From positions 1-55,334 of IMG/VR virus record IMGVR_UViG_2737471838_000004: 55,334 nt of DNA; one strand, 5' to 3'. Under the pieces are notes generated by a model, which had not been told where the DNA came from, ran no database searches, and saw nothing but the letters and a program-made list of their open reading frames with translations. The translations under genes were made by a program, and so were the position numbers. Shown piece after piece: positions 42,749 to 53,437 of this stretch; the stretch's first letter is position 1; each line of letters starts with the position of its first letter. Origin of the DNA: a virus (Duplodnaviria; Heunggongvirae; Uroviricota; Caudoviricetes).

Positions 42749-43054
42749 TTAATCGTTAATAACCTGGCCCATACGACCGCGATATTTGCGCATACGTGGA
42801 TCGACATATTCAGGCCAGTGCATATCCGGTTTTCTTTGCAGTGGGTAAAAACTTGCTTGCCAGTTGTCGAACCATATTTGCTTTGCGTACAGGTCACTAA
42901 ATCTTTTTGCCATCCGTTCCGCTGCCGTGCCGCATAAAAAAAGCCCATGATCGATTTGATCACGGGCTTCTTTTAATACTTGCTCTTTTGTTCGCGGAAT
43001 CGGTGGCGCATTAAGATAATGCGTAGATTCTGCTTTTGCCATACTGTAAACCAA
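42749..43054 (-). CDS. hypothetical protein
   Basis: 101-aa ORF directly downstream of ssb; start uncertain. Confidence 0.4.
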   Translation of the reverse strand: MVYSMAKAESTHYLNAPPIPRTKEQVLKEARDQIDHGLFLCGTAAERMAKRFSDLYAKQIWFDNWQASFYPLQRKPDMHWPEYVDPRMRKYRGRMGQVIND

Positions 43055-43478
43055 TAGGACTGAATGGAATATCGTCGTCGAAGTCCATCGGCGGCGGATT
43101 ATTCCCGTTATTATTCTGCTGCTGCGGCGGCGCTTTCTGCTGCTGGCCTTGCTGCTGGCCTTGTTGGTTGACGTTCATGAATTCGAACTCATTAACCGCC
43201 ACTTCGACCGCCGTCCCCTTCGTGCCATCGTTCCGGTCAAACTGCCGAACATCCAGGCGACCGCTTACCACTATCTTTCCACCCTTGCGGATATGCGGCG
43301 CTAATTTTTCCGCACGCTCACCAAATACCAGACAAGTGATCCACATTACCCGCTTATTATCGCCGTAGCCATTCGTTACAGCTAACGGAAAACTACCAAT
43401 AGCTTTCCCGTTTTGCGTGTAGCGCACTTCCATATCATTACCGATATTCCCGCCCAGCGTGATTGAATTTAAACTCAT
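43011..43478 (-). CDS. ssb: single-stranded DNA-binding protein
   Basis: 155 aa; OB-fold region, Gln/Gly-rich linker and acidic C-terminal tail DFDDDIPF. Confidence 0.85.
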   Translation of the reverse strand: MSLNSITLGGNIGNDMEVRYTQNGKAIGSFPLAVTNGYGDNKRVMWITCLVFGERAEKLAPHIRKGGKIVVSGRLDVRQFDRNDGTKGTAVEVAVNEFEFMNVNQQGQQQGQQQKAPPQQQNNNGNNPPPMDFDDDIPFSPIGLQYGKSRIYALS

Positions 43479-44262: not shown

Positions 44263-44553
44263 TTAATGGTAGCGGACTTTATCCAGGGGTTTTTCCCCTA
44301 GTTGGCGTGGTTGCGTTGCGTGGTAGTAGTTGCCGCTTTCATTCTCCGTATACCATTTTACTGATCCTTTGCGACGTTCTTTAATGCTATTTGATTTGCA
44401 TCTTTCCTCGTTTGCAAAGCGAATAGCTTTATCCACATTGTCTGTTTTATTAATTGCAGGTGATGATTTTCTTTCGTTTTCTCTTTTTATTCTTCTGCGT
44501 TCCCTGGCATTCATTTTGCTATCACATTTGCCATACATAATTGTAACGGTCAT
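44263..44553 (-). CDS. N: N-like transcription antiterminator (arginine-rich motif)
   Basis: 96 aa; N-terminus MTVTIMYGK...NARERRRIKRENERK resembles the P22 N-type arginine-rich boxB-binding motif; AAGGAGA RBS; first gene downstream of pL-like promoter and nutL-like site. Confidence 0.55.
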   Translation of the reverse strand: MTVTIMYGKCDSKMNARERRRIKRENERKSSPAINKTDNVDKAIRFANEERCKSNSIKERRKGSVKWYTENESGNYYHATQPRQLGEKPLDKVRYH

Positions 44554-45056: not shown

Positions 45057-45704
45057 TTATGGCAGGTTCACGATCTTCGCATCCACTACCACGCCTATGA
45101 TTTTAGATTCTGGATTCATAGGGATTGGCGGATACAGAGGATTGAGAGAACGTAAAAGCCTTTGACCTCCATCAATAACAAGCTGTTTAAACGTAGGCGT
45201 TTGCCCTTCCTCCAGTTGGGCTATAACCAGTTTTCCGTCAATAGCTGGCGCGTGCGGATCGACAAGTATCATCGTCCCCGCTGGTATACTCAATCCTTGC
45301 GGCGCGTTCATTGATTCGCCTTTAGCTACCAGCCAATAACTATCATCTGAACAAATAACGCTAGTCGTAACGTGTGGTAATGTTGATCGCCTTGTGTCTT
45401 CCATATTGTTTACTGCGTCCTTCCAGTCAACAACCGGGTAACTGCCTAAATCACGCGGCGGCGCACCCGGCAACGTGTTAGAAACAGAATCATCAATGAC
45501 CATTCCGTCATGAGTAACAGTGAATTGCCGACGACCAAGCGCCCGCATAATCCGCGCAATGTCTTCAAGATTTGGCTCACGGCGACCATTCAGCCAGTGT
45601 GATAAGCCGCCTTTCGTGATCCCCATGAGATCCGCCAATGAATCCTGGCTCATGCCTTGCGCACGCATAAGCTGCTTTGCTAAGTCATACCATTTTGTTT
45701 TCAT
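45057..45704 (-). CDS. cI: CI-like immunity repressor (HTH + S24 LexA-like autopeptidase domain)
   Basis: 215 aa; N-terminal HTH (QDSLADLMGITKGGLSHWLNGRR), C-terminal S24 motifs GESM and FKQL. Confidence 0.85.
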   Translation of the reverse strand: MKTKWYDLAKQLMRAQGMSQDSLADLMGITKGGLSHWLNGRREPNLEDIARIMRALGRRQFTVTHDGMVIDDSVSNTLPGAPPRDLGSYPVVDWKDAVNNMEDTRRSTLPHVTTSVICSDDSYWLVAKGESMNAPQGLSIPAGTMILVDPHAPAIDGKLVIAQLEEGQTPTFKQLVIDGGQRLLRSLNPLYPPIPMNPESKIIGVVVDAKIVNLP

Positions 45705-46009: not shown

Positions 46010-46255
46010 ATGTATTACGTGCGCAAGGCTTTTGATATTCGCCTGAATAACAATGATCCGGCGCAAAAACTCATCTTAATTGCACTGGCAACAAAGGCCG
46101 GATGCAACGGTAAAAGCGAAGTAACGCCGGAAGAGATCGCTGAAATGTGCGAAATTTCGTTACGAGATACTATCTCTGCACTTCATCAACTGAAAAGAAG
46201 CGGCCTGATCAGCCAGCTGCCAGGTTTCTTCTGTGTTTATCAGTTGATGTTCTAG
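46010..46255 (+). CDS. small HTH protein, first gene of rightward operon (possible Cro-like / initiator-N-domain paralog)
   Basis: 81 aa; AGGAG RBS; resembles N-terminal HTH domain of the following O-like protein. Confidence 0.45.
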   Translation: MYYVRKAFDIRLNNNDPAQKLILIALATKAGCNGKSEVTPEEIAEMCEISLRDTISALHQLKRSGLISQLPGFFCVYQLMF

Positions 46256-46276: not shown

Positions 46277-47305
46277 ATGAGTATGCGGCTAATGGTCGAG
46301 GTATTCCATACTGAGGTCGGGAACCCAATGCACAAACTAGTGCTGTTGAAGTTAGCTGATAACGCTAATGATAACGGCGAGTGTTACCCTTCTTACCATC
46401 ACATAGCAAAGGAATGCGAGATCAGTAAGAGTACAGCAATGAGGGCTGTCGACGCACTTTGTGAAAAAGGTCTATTGATTAAACAACCAAGATACTTAAT
46501 CGGAGGAAAGGAGCAAACGAGTAACTTCTATGTGATAGTTCTGCCATCATTGCAGGGTAGTGTCACAGTGACACCGGGGGTAGTGTCAGAGAGACACCAG
46601 GGTAGTGTCACAGTGACACCGGGGGTAGTGTCAGAGAGACACCAGGGTAGTGTCACAGTGACACCGGGGGTAGTGTCAGAGAGACACCCTAATCAGTCAT
46701 ATATAACCAGTAAAGAGAACATTAAGAACAATACACTTCGTGTATTGGAAAAAGACGAGTCTATCAGCGAAGAAGATCGGGTGGCTGATTTGGCAGCGTC
46801 GCGCGTACTCGATCACTATAACAACAAGTTTAATAGCAAGCATAAGGAGAAAAAATACTTTGTTAACCTACTGAAGAAGACAAAAACACGAGGCGCATAT
46901 ACTGAAGAAGATTTGATCATGGTTATCGACTGGATAGCGGAAACATGGTCGTTTAAACCGGAACCGATAAAGATCGCCAGGGTAAGCCGCTTTGATGAAT
47001 ACCGGGCAAAGGCTGAACAATGGCGAAGAGTTACAGCTACTGTAAACGCTGCCGATGTGGTGGAAGAGTTTAACATCACGTTTGATGGACTGTTGCCACC
47101 TGCCGAACTTGATCGTGATCTTGAACGCAAGATCTATGCGTTCACTGACTACCTGAAAGACAAAAGCATTAACGGCTTTATCGCCTACTTTGAAGCGTTC
47201 AAAAACACGGCTTCAGATTTTTACTTCGGCAATGGCTTCACTGCGACACTTGATTTCCTGCTTAAACCAAAAACGCTACGTGATACACGCGCTGGCGCTC
47301 TTTGA
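46277..47305 (+). CDS. replication initiation protein (lambda O-like) containing internal iteron array
   Basis: 342 aa; N-terminal HTH domain, linker encoded by 3 x 45-bp direct repeats (QGSVTVTPGVVSERH x3), C-terminal domain. Confidence 0.7.
   Translation: MSMRLMVEVFHTEVGNPMHKLVLLKLADNANDNGECYPSYHHIAKECEISKSTAMRAVDALCEKGLLIKQPRYLIGGKEQTSNFYVIVLPSLQGSVTVTPGVVSERHQGSVTVTPGVVSERHQGSVTVTPGVVSERHPNQSYITSKENIKNNTLRVLEKDESISEEDRVADLAASRVLDHYNNKFNSKHKEKKYFVNLLKKTKTRGAYTEEDLIMVIDWIAETWSFKPEPIKIARVSRFDEYRAKAEQWRRVTATVNAADVVEEFNITFDGLLPPAELDRDLERKIYAFTDYLKDKSINGFIAYFEAFKNTASDFYFGNGFTATLDFLLKPKTLRDTRAGAL
46553..46687 (+). repeat. origin iterons: 3 tandem 45-bp repeats, each two about 22-bp sub-iterons with internal dyad GTGTCAC..GTGACAC / GTGTC..GACAC
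   Basis: perfect tandem copies of CAGGGTAGTGTCACAGTGACACCGGGGGTAGTGTCAGAGAGACAC inside the O-like gene, followed by an AT-rich stretch. Confidence 0.8.
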
Positions 47306-47540: not shown

Positions 47541-47672
47541 CCTTCATACCAGTCTGTAAGTCAAAAATTAGCCACCTGAAAGCGCCTCTGACGCAATAAG
47601 ACACTGCAACCTGTGCAATCGGGTTACGCGGTGGGATTTTTGCGTTGTAGCGCGTTTTACGGAGAAATTACA

Positions 47673-48416
47673 ATGTCTGAGTTGATGAGTTTTAATTTTG
47701 ATAACAATAAAATCACTGCTGTAATTTATGACGGTAAACCTGCTTTCGTTGCAATGGATGTGGCGCGGGCGTTAGGGTACGCAACTCCGCAAAAAGCAAT
47801 TAGTGACCACTGTAAGTCATTGATAAAAATAAAATGTTCTGAAATGGAACATTTGGGATTCACTCCAATCCCGCAAGGAGTAACGCTAATCCATGAATCA
47901 GATGTTTACCGTCTGGTGATGCGTTCAAAAATAGAATCGGCTGAGCGCTTCCAGGATTGGGTGTGTGAGGAGGTTCTCCCTGCTTTGCGTGAAAATGGAC
48001 ATTACGGTTTTAAACCAGCTTTGCCGGATTTCACTGACCCAGTCGCTGCGGCTCGCGCATGGGCGGATGAGGTGGAGAAAAAACGATTAGCACAGAAAGA
48101 AGTTGATCGTCTGGCGCTGGAAAACAAGGAATTAGCGCCAAAAGCGGCTGTCTGTGATGCGATTGTAAAAAATAAACAGCATCGCAATGCTACACAGGTT
48201 GCCAAGCCTTTGGGTATGACTGCTACGCAACTCAACAAAAAACTTGAACAGGTTGACGTGTACGATACTCGAATTAAGCGCGGCGGGCGTATGTTCAAAC
48301 AGTGGTTCGTAGATGAAGGCTATGGAGTGGTAAAATGTTCGGCTGATGGTTACGTCCAATCACTATTTACTGCTAAGGGCCAGATTTGGGTATCTGAACT
48401 TTTTGCTTGTAAGTAG
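47673..48416 (+). CDS. Bro-N domain antirepressor-like protein
   Basis: ORF 47613..48416 trimmed to MSELMSFNF with GGAGAAA RBS; N-terminal Bro-N-like region (FNFDNNKITAV...AMDVARALGY). Confidence 0.65.
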   Translation: MSELMSFNFDNNKITAVIYDGKPAFVAMDVARALGYATPQKAISDHCKSLIKIKCSEMEHLGFTPIPQGVTLIHESDVYRLVMRSKIESAERFQDWVCEEVLPALRENGHYGFKPALPDFTDPVAAARAWADEVEKKRLAQKEVDRLALENKELAPKAAVCDAIVKNKQHRNATQVAKPLGMTATQLNKKLEQVDVYDTRIKRGGRMFKQWFVDEGYGVVKCSADGYVQSLFTAKGQIWVSELFACK

Positions 48417-48449
48417 GTATACATTTTGTTAACTGGAGGAATTAACATT

Positions 48450-49580
48450 ATGTCGCAAAGAAAAATCAGCGATGAACAATTGATCGCTGAATACAACAAC
48501 GGTTTAACGTACAAACAGATCGCTGAAAAGTACGGCATGTCTAAACGCAATGTCGAACGCCTGGGCGCAAAACTGGCAAAACGCGGTTTAATATCAACAC
48601 GCCGCGCGCCTGGTTTTAGCGTTACTGGCGAGTCAGTGCTTGTTGACAATAACGGGAATACAGTCATGCGCTGGATTAAAACAGCCCGTGACCGCGACGA
48701 AATGGAAATGCTAATGGAAGCTGCACGCGACGCTTTCACGGATGAAATACCACGCGCGGAGGCCGTGCCAGTTCCGGAAATTGATTTTCAAAAAAGCCTG
48801 GCTCTTTATCCGGTATTTGATCTGCATATCGGGGCGCTTGCTCATAAAGCTGAATGCGGCGAGAGCTACGACACTGGGATCGCTGAGCGCGTGTTGAATG
48901 ACTTCTTTGACTACGCCGTTGGCGCTGCGCCGATGTCTGAAAAAGCTGTATTGCTTCTCGGTGGCGATCTGCTTCACTCTGACGGTATGGTCCCGGTGAC
49001 GCCAACAAGCGGGCACATTCTTGATCAAGATAGTCGCTACGCAAAACTTGTTTATGTGGCGATCCGGTCTGTCCGTCGTGCGGTAGGGAAGATGTTGCTA
49101 AATCATAAGGATGTGGAAATCCAGGTGTTATCAGGGAATCATGACCAGTCTGGTATGATTTGGCTACGTGCGGCGCTGGCGGCTTTTTACGAAGATGAAC
49201 CGCGCGTGACGGTTGATGTGTCCCCTGCCATCGTCCACCACACACAGTACGGAAAAACGTTCCTTGCTTACCACCACGGGCACACTATCAAAAAGCCTGA
49301 AAATTTATTGTCTGCTTGCGTCTCTGACTGGCGGGAAGACTTTGGCAAGTCAAAATATGTTTACGTACATGTGGGCCATTTGCACCATAAATCAGTGACA
49401 GAATCATCTATAGGCATAGTTGAACATCATGGCACGTTAGCGGGAAAAGACGCTTATTCAACTAATGGAGGATGGAGATCGCAACGTTGCGCTGCGGTTA
49501 TCATTTACAGTCCTGACTATGGCGAAATTGGTCGCTTTGTATATAGGCCTGAAATGGTGGAGTGTCATAATGTGGGATGA
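48450..49580 (+). CDS. HTH-domain protein fused to calcineurin-like metallophosphoesterase domain
   Basis: ORF 48426..49580 trimmed to MSQRKISDE (GGAGG RBS); N-terminal HTH (LTYKQIAEKYGMSKRNVERL); phosphoesterase motifs DLHIG, GGDLLHSD, GNHD, GHLHH. Confidence 0.55.
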   Translation: MSQRKISDEQLIAEYNNGLTYKQIAEKYGMSKRNVERLGAKLAKRGLISTRRAPGFSVTGESVLVDNNGNTVMRWIKTARDRDEMEMLMEAARDAFTDEIPRAEAVPVPEIDFQKSLALYPVFDLHIGALAHKAECGESYDTGIAERVLNDFFDYAVGAAPMSEKAVLLLGGDLLHSDGMVPVTPTSGHILDQDSRYAKLVYVAIRSVRRAVGKMLLNHKDVEIQVLSGNHDQSGMIWLRAALAAFYEDEPRVTVDVSPAIVHHTQYGKTFLAYHHGHTIKKPENLLSACVSDWREDFGKSKYVYVHVGHLHHKSVTESSIGIVEHHGTLAGKDAYSTNGGWRSQRCAAVIIYSPDYGEIGRFVYRPEMVECHNVG

Positions 49581-50073
49581 TTTATTTACCTATAGTGACG
49601 GCGTTCTATATTGGTCTTGTAATCGTGCAAACAACAAAATAAAAGCAGGTAGCGTGGCTGGATGTAAACATTATCGCGGATATTGGACTGTACGCGTTAA
49701 TGGTATTTGTTGCACATGGCGTCACCGCATTATCTGGGAAATGTTTAACGGCCCTATTCCTGATGGAATGGAAATAGATCACATAAATCATGTACCTGGT
49801 GATGATAGAATCGAAAACTTAAGGATGGTGACAAGGAAGGAGAATAACAGAAACAAAACAATGCCATCAAGTAACACTAGCGGATGCGTTGGCGTTACGT
49901 GGAACAAGAAAACCAATAAATGGCGTGCGCAAATAGGTATAAGGGGGTCTGATGGGAAAAAGAAAACAATATACGTTTATTACGGTGACTCATTTGATGA
50001 TGCCGTAAAAGCAAGAAAAGAAGCTGAAAGAATGTATAACTTTCATAGCAATCACGGCATTTCTTTACCATGA
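49570..50073 (+). CDS. HNH homing-endonuclease-like protein (HNH + AP2-like)
   Basis: ORF 49465..50073 trimmed to MWDDLFTYSDGVLYW; IIWEMFNGPIPDGMEIDHINH...NLRMVT. Confidence 0.75.
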   Translation: MWDDLFTYSDGVLYWSCNRANNKIKAGSVAGCKHYRGYWTVRVNGICCTWRHRIIWEMFNGPIPDGMEIDHINHVPGDDRIENLRMVTRKENNRNKTMPSSNTSGCVGVTWNKKTNKWRAQIGIRGSDGKKKTIYVYYGDSFDDAVKARKEAERMYNFHSNHGISLP

Positions 50074-50107: not shown

Positions 50108-51523
50108 ATGGTAACTGAGCAAATAAACTCGCTACGGCAGGAACGTGAGGCGTCAGTTATCGGCGGGCTACTGTTAGGTGGCCTTACTCCTAACGCGCAA
50201 GATGTTCTCGCCACACTTGATCCTGAAGTGTTCACGATCCCGCTTTATAAACGTGCGTTTGAAGTTATCCGGGCACAAGCCAGAAACAGGAATCTCATCG
50301 ATGCATTGCTGGTCGGTGATGAGATTGGTAATGAAAATTTCGTACCGCTGATGCAAACGGCGCGATCGTGCCCTTCTGCTGCCAACCTGAAGGGATACGC
50401 ACAGTTACTACGTGAAGAGCACCAGCGGCGGCAGATGTTGGAACTTATCGACGATATACGCTACAAGCTGGAGACGGGGACGCTAGAGGTCGTCAAAGAG
50501 ACGATGAAAGATTTTGATTCCCGGTATTCAAAATTAAAGGTAACGAAAGACAAGATTATCCCCGTTCTGTTGCGCGATGCGGTCCAGGAGTACACAGAAG
50601 TTTTAAGTAAGCGCATGGAATGCGGTGTCAATTCTGACAACATCAAAACAGGGATAGAACCACTCGACGAAATGTTAGGCGGCATTAACGCTACTGATTT
50701 AGTGCTTCTCGCCGGACGCCCTGGGTCTGGTAAATCTGCGTTGGCGCTGACAATTGCACGCGCTGCTGCTGAACGCCCTTACCCTGGAAGCAAGGATCAG
50801 CGGGTTGGCGTTTTGTTCTTCACGCTTGAAATGTCACTCGATCAGATGACTGAACGCGCTATCGCTGGCGCTGGCAATTTATCAACTGACTGCCTGCGCA
50901 ATCCGGTAAAACTTGATGATGAGGGGTGGGCGCATGTAGGCCAGGGGATGAGCGCACTTGCTAACCTTGAGGTGTGGATCGTTGACGCATCGCAGTTAAC
51001 GGTTGAGGAAATACGCGCAACAACGGAACGCATGAAGCAGGATCACCCGAACTTGGGTATGGTAATGATTGATTATATCGGTTTAATGCAGCTTGCTAAG
51101 GCAGAACGTCACGATCTCGCCGTGGGGCAATTATCGTGGTCGTTAAAGATGATGGCGAAAGAATTGCGTGTACCAGTGTTGGCGCTGGCGCAACTGTCAC
51201 GCCGCGTTGAGGAACGACCGAACAAGCGCCCTAACAATTCTGATCTTCGTGATTCTGGCAACCTTGAGCAAGATGCCGACAGGATCATCATGGTTTACCG
51301 CGATGGGTATTACGACGAGCAGTCTGTTGCCCGCGAATACATGGAAATCATTGTGTCAAAAAACCGTCATGGTAAGTCTGGAACTGTTTACCAGCGGTTT
51401 GATGACAACGGTAATATCTTGCCATGCGACCAGGCGCGCGCAGCCGCAGCGTGTATTCAGTCAATGAATCATCGCACAAGCCGTTTTAACCAACGAAACA
51501 ATCAGAATAACACATCTTTTTAA
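50108..51523 (+). CDS. dnaB: replicative DNA helicase (DnaB-like)
   Basis: 471 aa; DnaB N-terminal domain, Walker A GRPGSGKSA, RecA-like C-terminal domain. Confidence 0.85.
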   Translation: MVTEQINSLRQEREASVIGGLLLGGLTPNAQDVLATLDPEVFTIPLYKRAFEVIRAQARNRNLIDALLVGDEIGNENFVPLMQTARSCPSAANLKGYAQLLREEHQRRQMLELIDDIRYKLETGTLEVVKETMKDFDSRYSKLKVTKDKIIPVLLRDAVQEYTEVLSKRMECGVNSDNIKTGIEPLDEMLGGINATDLVLLAGRPGSGKSALALTIARAAAERPYPGSKDQRVGVLFFTLEMSLDQMTERAIAGAGNLSTDCLRNPVKLDDEGWAHVGQGMSALANLEVWIVDASQLTVEEIRATTERMKQDHPNLGMVMIDYIGLMQLAKAERHDLAVGQLSWSLKMMAKELRVPVLALAQLSRRVEERPNKRPNNSDLRDSGNLEQDADRIIMVYRDGYYDEQSVAREYMEIIVSKNRHGKSGTVYQRFDDNGNILPCDQARAAAACIQSMNHRTSRFNQRNNQNNTSF

Positions 51524-52570: not shown

Positions 52571-52986
52571 GGCAAATTAGATTTGAGATAGTAAACGACG
52601 CCGTGAAAGAAAATGCTGTCAGGCAGATAAGAGAGATCCAGCCTGATAGCAAAAGCCCGCTGATAATTACCATCCAGGAGAAAACCCGCTCGCTAAGTCA
52701 AAATGCGAGACTGCACGCCATGCTATCTGATATAGCAAGGCAAGCTGAGTATTTAGGCAAAAAAAGAACCATTGATTTTTGGAAGGGTTTATTTGTTTCT
52801 GGATGGATGATTGCTACTGGGTATAAAGCTGAAATAATTCCAGGGCTTGAAGGTGAGTTTATCAATATAAGGGTAAGCACTACAACTTTAAGCAAACGAG
52901 ATTTAAACGAATTAATGGAATATATCGAAGCATGGTGCGTCGCCAATGGTGTAAGATTATCAACGTGGAGAGTATATAATGGTTGA
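52567..52986 (+). CDS. ninB: NinB (Orf) recombination mediator
   Basis: 139 aa; NinB-family signature (ITIQEKTRSLSQNARLHAMLSDIARQ). Confidence 0.8.
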   Translation: MRQIRFEIVNDAVKENAVRQIREIQPDSKSPLIITIQEKTRSLSQNARLHAMLSDIARQAEYLGKKRTIDFWKGLFVSGWMIATGYKAEIIPGLEGEFINIRVSTTTLSKRDLNELMEYIEAWCVANGVRLSTWRVYNG

Positions 52987-53437
52987 TTGGCATTATTACT
53001 TTGAATATAGGGAAGGATTTTTGTATTGGAAGGTGAATCCTTCATGCAAAATAAAGGCTGGAGCATTGGCTGGAAGTTTCAGCCATCGCGGATACATGAA
53101 GGTAAGCATAAATAAAAGGCGTTATTATGTTCATCGGATTGTTTGGGAAATGCACAACGGCCCAATCCCTGTTGGGTATGAGGTGGATCATATAGATAGG
53201 AATCCATCCAATAATTTAATTCAGAATTTACGCCTTGTTACTCATAGGGTTAATATGAGGAACCAACCTCCTAAGACTAATAGCGGATGCATGGGTGTAT
53301 CATGGTATAAAGCATATAATAAATGGCAGGTTAGAATTAAAGTTGATGGTGTTACTTTATTTATAGGGTATTTTGAAAAATTAAGTGACGCAATAAATGC
53401 GAGAAAGGAAGCTGAATCTAAGTATTGGGGGCAATAA
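52979..53437 (+). CDS. HNH homing-endonuclease-like protein (HNH + AP2-like)
   Basis: 152 aa; YVHRIVWEMHNGPIPVGYEVDHIDRNPSNN...NLRLVT. Confidence 0.75.
   Translation: MVDWHYYFEYREGFLYWKVNPSCKIKAGALAGSFSHRGYMKVSINKRRYYVHRIVWEMHNGPIPVGYEVDHIDRNPSNNLIQNLRLVTHRVNMRNQPPKTNSGCMGVSWYKAYNKWQVRIKVDGVTLFIGYFEKLSDAINARKEAESKYWGQ

Follow-up and report, generated by a model that had tools for sequence, protein, structure and literature searches.

The initiator gene and its internal repeats

The window analysed here, a 55,334-bp stretch of DNA from a virus of the class Caudoviricetes (IMG/VR record IMGVR_UViG_2737471838_000004), carries at 46277..47305 a replication initiator gene whose interior holds a tandem array of iterons followed by an A-rich block and a palindrome. 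The gene shows 94.6% nucleotide identity to that for the 'DNA replication protein O' of phage mEp013, and related genes are found in mEp044, mEp010, mEp554, and mEp021. This match places the window in mEpimmI, a group of Nus-dependent, 'non-lambdoid' coliphages. The features of the gene are listed below.

46277..47305, plus strand: replication initiator gene, 342 aa, assigned by HTH_36, PHROG, the match to mEp013, and the AlphaFold2 layout
46277..46543, plus strand: region coding for the N-terminal winged helix, aa 1-89, the presumed iteron-binding domain, with a predicted recognition helix at aa 51-63
46544..46765, plus strand: predicted disordered interdomain linker, aa 90-163 (AlphaFold2), which includes the entire putative origin
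46553..46688, no strand: iteron array of six 20-bp dyad-symmetric iterons, from Tandem Repeats Finder and a pattern search
46556-46575, 46579-46598, 46601-46620, 46624-46643, 46646-46665, and 46669-46688: the single iterons, with types A and B alternating
46689..46733, no strand: A-rich, AT-rich block, the presumed DNA-unwinding element, from composition and conservation
46729..46747, no strand: palindrome CAATACAC-TTC-GTGTATTG, arms of 8 bp, bounding the AT-rich block on the right
47024..47302, plus strand: C-terminal domain, aa 250-342, a homologue of the P22 gp18 C-terminus, presumed to recruit the helicase

The array is the strongest tandem repeat of the window, called by Tandem Repeats Finder at a period of 45 with 3.0 copies, 100% matches, and a score of 272, as against 63 for the runner-up. 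Its three identical 45-nt copies occupy 46553-46597, 46598-46642, and 46643-46687, just as a preliminary description of the locus, made from the sequence alone, had reported three perfect tandem 45-bp repeats. The same interval is also called at a period of 23 (5.9 copies, 84% matches), and each 45-bp unit therefore comprises two related half-units of 23 and 22 bp. These are the two sub-iterons of about 22 bp with internal dyads that the description had recognized, but the end of the array, which it placed at 46687, has to be moved to 46688, where the last iteron (46669-46688) ends.

The six 20-bp sites share the consensus GGTAGTGTCA[C/G]AG[T/A]GACACC and follow one another at start-to-start distances of 23/22/23/22/23 bp. 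Type A iterons read GGTAGTGTCACAGTGACACC and contain the dyad GTGTCACAGTGACAC with 7-bp arms, a perfect 7+7-bp dyad (GTGTCAC-A-GTGACAC), while type B iterons read GGTAGTGTCAGAGAGACACC and contain the dyad GTGTCAGAGAGACAC with 5-bp arms (5+5 bp). A search with the pattern GGTAGTGTCASAGWGACACC, allowing up to three mismatches, returned six matches in the whole window (at 46556, 46579, 46601, 46624, 46646, and 46669) and no further match in the 55 kb outside the six iterons; none of 100 shuffled sequences gave any match. Translation of the open reading frame (ORF) 46277..47305 shows that the array codes for the peptide QGSVTVTPGVVSERH three times over, in agreement with the earlier account.

The initiator consists of an N-terminal winged helix, a disordered linker, a helical middle domain, and a C-terminal domain resembling that of P22 gp18. 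Residues 16-67 match Pfam HTH_36 (1.9e-14, over the gathering cut-off), the N-terminal domain also matches Pfam DnaD_N (1.1e-3), and the whole protein matches PHROG families 8540, 391, and 428 ('replication initiation O-like'). The motif DxGECxP, conserved in the alignment, is present as D32-N-G-E-C-Y-P38. An AlphaFold2 model built from an alignment of 20 homologues, of moderate overall quality (mean pLDDT 57), places helices at aa 17-29, 40-47, and 51-63 and a beta wing at aa 67-87. The linker (aa 90-163) has a pLDDT of 20-28 and secondary structure limited to one 3-residue helical turn, the middle domain (aa 165-253) is helical and confidently modelled, and the C-terminus is helical at low confidence. 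The iterons correspond to aa 93-137, and the AT-rich block and palindrome reach aa 157, all of them inside the predicted linker, which agrees with the location first proposed for the repeats. Residues 250-342 are 34% identical to aa 175-271 of P22 gp18 (BLASTP, E 9e-14), and tblastn gives a match as well.

The label 'O-like', under which the gene was first described, thus holds for the architecture and for the C-terminal domain with its 34% identity to P22 gp18, but not for the N-terminal domain, which is of the HTH_36 family. Neither Pfam PF04492 (Phage_rep_O) nor NCBIfam TIGR01610 matches the window initiator at E <= 0.01, with lambda O and P22 gp18 as controls scoring 5.7e-36 and 6.9e-38 with the former and 5.4e-39 and 2e-24 with the latter; BLASTP against lambda O gives no real match (best E 0.067 over 13 aa). 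A sequence search of the PDB found no related chain. Foldseek returned no match to the model at E <= 0.001 and only a generic winged-helix signal, the best matches being 5kbj, 4pql, and 4pt7, all weak (E 0.025-0.04; TM 0.2 over the whole query), with the N-terminal domain of DnaD also among the matches. A scan of genome contigs with the N-terminal domain gave no confirmed relative. Homologues in a plasmid collection were set aside: they are distant, lie on phage-sized 'plasmids', and carry no information on function, and a 12.5-kb Bacillus smithii plasmid encoding a 28%-identical protein is without replicon typing and so equally uninformative.

Immediately 3' of the sixth iteron, the A+T content over 45 nt (46689-46733) is 73%, the top strand having A at 0.51 and T at 0.22. 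This value lies at the 98.6th percentile of all 45-nt windows of the 55-kb stretch and is reached by 1.7% of those within the gene, which bears out the AT-rich segment reported to follow the repeats. When the initiator gene was divided into 30-nt bins and compared across 10 mEpimmI genes, the bin 46697-46726 had a column identity of 0.983, third codon positions included, higher than any other in the gene's first two-thirds; the value is 0.83-0.93 for the five bins that precede the array and for the eight beyond 46727. In composition, the AT-rich block is close to its counterparts in lambda (76% A+T, A 0.58) and P22 (71%, A 0.56), and the palindrome at 46729-46747 is the positional counterpart of the right-arm palindromes in the lambda and P22 ori. 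With iterons, A-rich tract, and palindrome, the tripartite layout of those two origins is complete.

A homology of the AT-rich block to the P22 and lambda ori, prompted by a shared 9-mer, AATCAGTCA (P-N-Q-S), was considered and rejected, the local alignment not being significant. As a separate observation, mEp554 (L004, ~2405-2430) and L009 (~1911-1931) carry an alternative right-arm allele, TATACCCCCTTGTATCCCCCC instead of the AATACACTTCGTGTATT palindrome; this allele (TATACCCCCTT..CCCCC, also written TACCCCCTT..CCCCC) resembles the right arm of the P22 ori (ATACCCCCTTACCCCCTAAAGGGGG). Other signals were sought around the gene. No DnaA box lies within 46.0-47.4 kb, and the total over the window equals chance. 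Nothing in a promoter and terminator scan of 45.6-47.7 kb exceeds shuffle expectation, and the palindrome appears in the terminator scan as a weak minus-strand terminator-like site only.

Conservation and variation of the array among relatives

Several observations point to the repeat mattering as a DNA element rather than as a peptide repeat. The sequence GGTAGTGTCA is read as G-S-V-T in type A iterons and as (G)-V-V-S in type B, that is, in two reading frames, and selection acting on a repeated peptide cannot preserve a period of 22.5 bp. Across ten mEpimmI genes, the two ends of the iteron (GGTAGTG ... ACC) show no variation. More diverged relatives were covered by a set of 55 different viral loci, with initiators that have the DxGECxP motif of HTH_36 and are 34-60% identical, including SfV orf39, Lys8385Vzw, and the Eru5-type Stx2a_F403. 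Tandem Repeats Finder calls an array with a period of 21-24 (or 45) bp in 53 of these loci, starting 170-300 nt 3' of the DxGECxP motif, as compared with about nine comparable arrays in total over all remaining flanks (~4 kb per locus). The consensus of the SfV-type arrays, GGTAGTGCAGAAAATTCACC, is recognisably related to the window iteron; the peptides that they encode (e.g., GGSANNSLSGAANSPGSAG) are unrelated.

The iterons also vary together with the protein. Three iteron types occur among 106 close homologues, taken as cluster representatives, and are told apart by the right half of the site: GACAC (encoding ..SERH), GTCAC (..S/TQSH), and GGCA..GCAAC (..AESN). Each type is found with a single class of N-terminal allele (in 39/39, 54/54, and 12/12 cases), and within each phage all iteron copies share one variant. 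Ten positions of the N-terminal domain are variable; eight of them fall at aa 41-63, an interval made up of helix 2, the turn, and the predicted recognition helix, and change with the iteron type. Between the GACAC and GTCAC types the only consistent differences are S52R and A60S, both in this predicted helix, and they are paired with the exchange of GACAC for GTCAC in all iterons of the array. The middle domain shows no such tie, its alleles occurring in free combination with each of the three iteron types, even though it begins about as far 3' of the iterons as the recognition helix lies 5' of them. The N-terminus of O and the iterons form one specificity unit in lambdoid phages, and the association of allele with iteron type seen here follows the same pattern.

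A natural domain swap in Escherichia phage MagusPhagus (L016, 1213..2265) points the same way and would support a coupling of N-terminal domain and iterons. Its initiator joins the same middle and C-terminal domains to a Lin1244_N domain in place of HTH_36, and its linker repeats differ, with AAAGGGTCATG present in 4.2 copies at 1599-1644, followed by an AT-rich stretch. Initiators of this Lin1244_N chimeric type were also seen in about 28 complete Escherichia coli genomes (prophage hits H55-H82).

The number of iterons varies as well. Most of 120 close cluster representatives (98) have two 45-bp units, or four iterons; one unit (two iterons) is present in 15, several of them on phage-length contigs, and three units (six iterons) in four, which are spread over all three iteron types. 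Two slightly differing units are found in all six sequenced mEp phages and in the IMG/VR relatives whose DNA was compared. Since the relatives carry two slightly differing units and the window carries three identical ones, the array of the window is an expansion of recent date, in frame, to six iterons where four are usual, and expansions and contractions of the 45-bp unit recur among the relatives. An assembly artefact was considered as the source of the third unit and judged unlikely, three-unit variants being present in four independent cluster representatives and with all three iteron types. Lambda has four iterons and Stx phages have six, with 13 extra residues in O, and two iterons with the AT-rich tract make up the minimal unwinding unit (PMC7466680). 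The variants with two, four, and six iterons found here are consistent with such a minimal unit.

These patterns prompt a tentative proposal, which we put forward as possible rather than probable: within the single immunity group mEpimmI, the N-terminal domain of the initiator and its iterons may act as a cassette for replicon specificity that can be exchanged and has at least three alleles. Allele and iteron number (2, 4, 6) would then decide which co-resident or superinfecting relatives can share an initiator, and origins could be located in SfV-like phages and in the Eru5/Eru6 Stx phages by the rule that cognate iterons lie directly 3' of HTH_36. If true, such a cassette would bear on replicon compatibility and on competition among relatives.

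The helicase gene and the surrounding module

The initiator gene lies in a module that also encodes a replicative helicase, and the repressor gene upstream of it is on the opposite strand. The neighbouring genes are as follows.

43011..43478, minus strand: SSB-like protein with a Gln-rich low-complexity tract, QQGQQQGQQQKAPPQQQ, left of the repressor
44263..44553, minus strand: N-like antiterminator (PHROG_271, 1.8e-11), left of the repressor
45057..45704, opposite strand to the initiator: CI-type repressor (HTH_3 and Peptidase_S24), upstream of the initiator
46010..46255, plus strand: 81-aa HTH_36 paralogue of the initiator N-terminal domain, directly upstream of the initiator
47613..48416, plus strand: Ant-like antirepressor (Bro-N and KilAC), between initiator and helicase
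48426..49580, plus strand: exonuclease with an N-terminal HTH (PHROG_704, 'DNA repair exonuclease'), between initiator and helicase
49465..50073, plus strand: HNH endonuclease (PHROG_99), just 5' of the helicase and overlapping the end of the exonuclease ORF
50108..51523, plus strand: DnaB-type replicative helicase, a homologue of P22 gp12, assigned by Pfam, PHROG, and identity to gp12
52979..53437, plus strand: second HNH endonuclease (PHROG_99), just past NinB

The helicase matches Pfam DnaB_C at 7.5e-76, the DnaB N-terminal domain at 5.4e-12, and PHROG_19 at 1.3e-109, and it is 57% identical to P22 gp12 over 444 aa. No lambda P or DnaC-type loader was found among the 18 ORFs at 43.5-54.5 kb (all compared with PHROGs and eight also with Pfam). 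Both statements of the preliminary description on this subject, that the phage encodes its own DnaB-type helicase and that it does so in place of a P-type loader, agree with these results. The gap between initiator and helicase is similar, though shorter, in mEp013.

The content of this interval varies among mEp013, mEp044, mEp010, mEp554, and mEp021, and 47613..49580 is therefore a variable cargo slot inside the replication module. The two HNH ORFs are paralogous (PHROG_99 at 2e-60 for 49465..50073 and 3.5e-61 for 52979..53437) and look like mobile homing-endonuclease insertions. The first of them is missing from mEp013, in which the helicase gene comes next after that of the exonuclease. The N-like antiterminator to the left of the repressor is consistent with the published Gp17 of mEp021. 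The Gln-rich tract of the SSB-like protein is called by Tandem Repeats Finder as a 12- and 15-bp repeat at 43120-43163, and the gene neighbours that of an Erf recombinase with a Q/P-rich tail.

The 81-aa protein encoded directly upstream of the initiator is 34% identical to the initiator N-terminal domain (E 9e-10) and matches HTH_36 at 4.4e-4. It is conserved in mEp013, mEp044, mEp010, mEp554, and mEp021, has a counterpart in MagusPhagus, and occupies the position that cII has in lambda.

The origin reading, its alternatives, and known systems

Taken together, the array, the A-rich block, and the palindrome are in all likelihood the vegetative replication origin of a temperate coliphage of the mEpimmI group, acting in the manner proposed below. 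The plan of this origin is lambdoid, with its place inside the initiator gene, and is joined to a P22-type module of initiator and DnaB-like helicase. The repeats had been read as origin iterons from the outset, a reading that we infer to be right from the motif in two frames, the arrays in 53 of 55 loci, the association of iteron type with N-terminal allele, the conserved A-rich block, the disordered linker, and the gp12-like helicase. An origin can sit inside this ORF because the segment it encodes is a disordered linker, which would tolerate both the iteron peptides and gains or losses of 45 bp (15 aa).

Once the CI-type repressor (45057..45704) is inactivated, the initiator would be produced from the early-right operon. 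Its N-terminal winged helix would bind the 20-bp dyad iterons at 46556-46688, probably as dimers, and the six sites, about two helical turns apart, would build a nucleoprotein complex comparable to the O-some of lambda. Strain from this complex may open the A-rich block at 46689-46733, bounded by the palindrome at 46729-46747. The gp18-like C-terminal domain would then recruit the gp12-like helicase (50108..51523) without a P or DnaC-type loader, as in P22, and host primase and polymerase would complete initiation. Iteron binding by the N-terminal domain, opening of the A-rich block, loader-free helicase recruitment, and takeover by the host are all steps that we infer from the layout of the locus.

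A number of points weigh against this interpretation. The N-terminal domain of the initiator has no homology to lambda O or P22 gp18 that is detectable by BLASTP, Pfam, or NCBIfam, and ~2.8 kb lie between the genes for initiator and helicase, which in P22 are adjacent. The AT-richness of 46689-46733 is moderate, another spot in the gene, at ~46817, being slightly richer. When the AT-rich block was aligned with the tracts of P22 and lambda, 501/2000 and 901/2000 shuffles, respectively, reached the observed score, whereas none of 2000 did so when P22 was compared with lambda, and those two tracts align significantly; the likeness of the block to either is one of composition, position, and layout only. 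GC skew was discarded as evidence for an origin, as its cumulative minimum, near 45 kb, falls where transcription changes from the minus to the plus strand and is fully confounded with that change. The association between iteron type and N-terminal allele could in part reflect physical linkage and shared ancestry, the cluster representatives not being independent of one another. Finally, the paper on the mEpimmI group names neither an origin nor iterons, and makes no mention of a helicase (PMC11893012).

Other explanations of the repeats have to be considered. The iterons of many plasmids also act in copy-number control, and the repeats could be initiator-binding sites for autoregulation, titration, or incompatibility, with the true origin elsewhere in the genome. 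The moderate AT-richness beside the array, with a patch about equally AT-rich elsewhere in the gene, would suit such a role, as would the weak binding of the two extra iterons of Stx phages (PMC7466680). On the other hand, the window holds no comparable tandem array (next score 63 vs 272) and no further iteron copy at three or fewer mismatches, and the block downstream is A-rich, conserved at silent positions as well, and followed by a palindrome, which completes the tripartite layout of lambda and P22. A purely regulatory role is hence unlikely. More improbable still is that the iterons are bound not by the initiator but by its 81-aa HTH_36 paralogue (46010..46255), acting as a replication repressor or regulator. 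In favour of this are the relationship of that protein to the N-terminal domain (34% identity, E 9e-10) and its conservation immediately 5' of the initiator gene throughout the group, yet its helix-turn-helix stays the same whichever of the three iteron types a phage carries, and the protein is kept in MagusPhagus, where the N-terminal domain of the initiator and the repeats both differ. Because its helix-turn-helix is invariant and it is retained there, the paralogue does not track the iteron sequence, whereas the recognition helix of the initiator does, and the paralogue was rejected as the iteron binder on this invariance.

The repeat might also be neutral or act at the protein level, as an expansion of a flexible Gly/Pro/Val/Ser linker made by slippage and having no function in the DNA. 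The complete identity of the three units indicates a very recent duplication, the copy number ranges from one to three units among close relatives, and a predicted disordered linker would tolerate such changes, all of which suits a neutral repeat. Against this stand the 22-23-bp period, which is not a multiple of 3 and puts the motif in two frames with unrelated peptides; the diverged relatives, in which the array keeps its period, its place, and its dyads while the peptides differ; and the sharing, within each phage, of one iteron variant tied to the allele of the recognition helix. We regard this as the least probable of the three alternatives and very unlikely overall.

With the origin reading, the replication origin of the mEpimmI coliphages is placed. 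In isolates from the human gut, mEpimmI phages are as common as lambdoid ones (PMC11893012), and no description of an origin in this group was found in the literature. A search of the accessible literature likewise found no origin description for the SfV-like, Eru5, and Eru6 phages with HTH_36 initiators, and for the Eru phages nothing is known about replication proteins, with iterons unmentioned (PMC8951638). The result also offers a simple rule for annotating origins in phages whose initiators start with HTH_36, including the Eru5/Eru6 Shiga-toxin phages. A natural series of two, four, and six iterons, with a pairing of two residues in the protein to one base pair in the site, provides material for studying how the specificity of initiator and origin changes jointly. 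The finding is useful for annotation but will not surprise a specialist, as its plan is the familiar one of lambda and P22; how phage replication is viewed does not change, and the lambda/P22 paradigm is extended to one more family of DNA-binding domains.

The closest model for the layout is the lambda ori, together with those of the Stx phages 933W and P27, which have six iterons. Like the putative origin of the window, these lie midway along the initiator ORF, where the interdomain linker is encoded. Lambda has four 18-bp iterons spaced 20/24/23 bp and the window has six of 20 bp spaced 23/22 bp, dyad-symmetric and about two helical turns apart in both, and in both the iterons are followed by an A-rich, AT-rich tract of ~45 bp and then a palindrome. 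Iteron number varies among relatives in either case, being 4 or 6 in lambda and the Stx phages, where the protein is extended by a corresponding insert (PMC7466680). In both systems, N-terminal domain and iterons appear to be inherited as one specificity unit, with the recombination joint downstream. The differences lie in the parts themselves: lambda O has a Phage_rep_O/TIGR01610 N-terminal domain where the window has HTH_36, the lambda iterons are unrelated in sequence and contain internal A-tracts that the window iterons lack, the AT-rich blocks share no sequence similarity, and lambda relies on a P-type helicase loader whereas the window phage has its own DnaB-like helicase.

Genes 18 and 12 of P22 provide the second model. 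P22 has the same module of initiator and DnaB-type helicase, with an ori annotated inside the initiator gene (gene 18), and the relationship extends to the proteins, the C-terminal ~95 aa of the initiator being 34% identical (E 9e-14) and the helicase 57% identical to gp12. Unlike the window, P22 has an N-terminal DNA-binding domain of another family and other iterons, and its AT-rich tract has no significant DNA similarity to that of the window. The window initiator has an extra helical middle domain (aa 165-253), and its gene is ~2.8 kb from that of the helicase, with antirepressor-like, exonuclease, and HNH genes in between, where the two P22 genes are adjacent.

For the N-terminal half of the window initiator, the true protein family is that of the HTH_36 (PF13730) initiators of SfV (orf39), Lys8385Vzw, and the Eru5/Eru6 Stx phages (e.g., Stx2a_F403). 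Their winged helix is homologous, with 49-56% identity over aa 1-90, and the SfV/Eru5-type genes also have a tandem array with a period of 21-24 bp directly 3' of the winged-helix region with the related consensus GGTAGTGCAG....TCACC. They differ in their C-terminal halves and in their partners, the SfV type lacking an adjacent gp12-like helicase and F403 having a primase-type neighbour. A wider relationship may exist with the RepA_N plasmid initiators of Gram-positive bacteria (RepA of pSK41 and pTZ2162; 4pql, 4pt7, and 5kbj), whose iteron-binding winged helix gives the top Foldseek matches to the model, weak as these are (E 0.025). RepA_N replicons have their origin iterons inside the rep coding sequence, and a relationship of the window N-terminal domain to these initiators is a lead suggested by the predicted structure.

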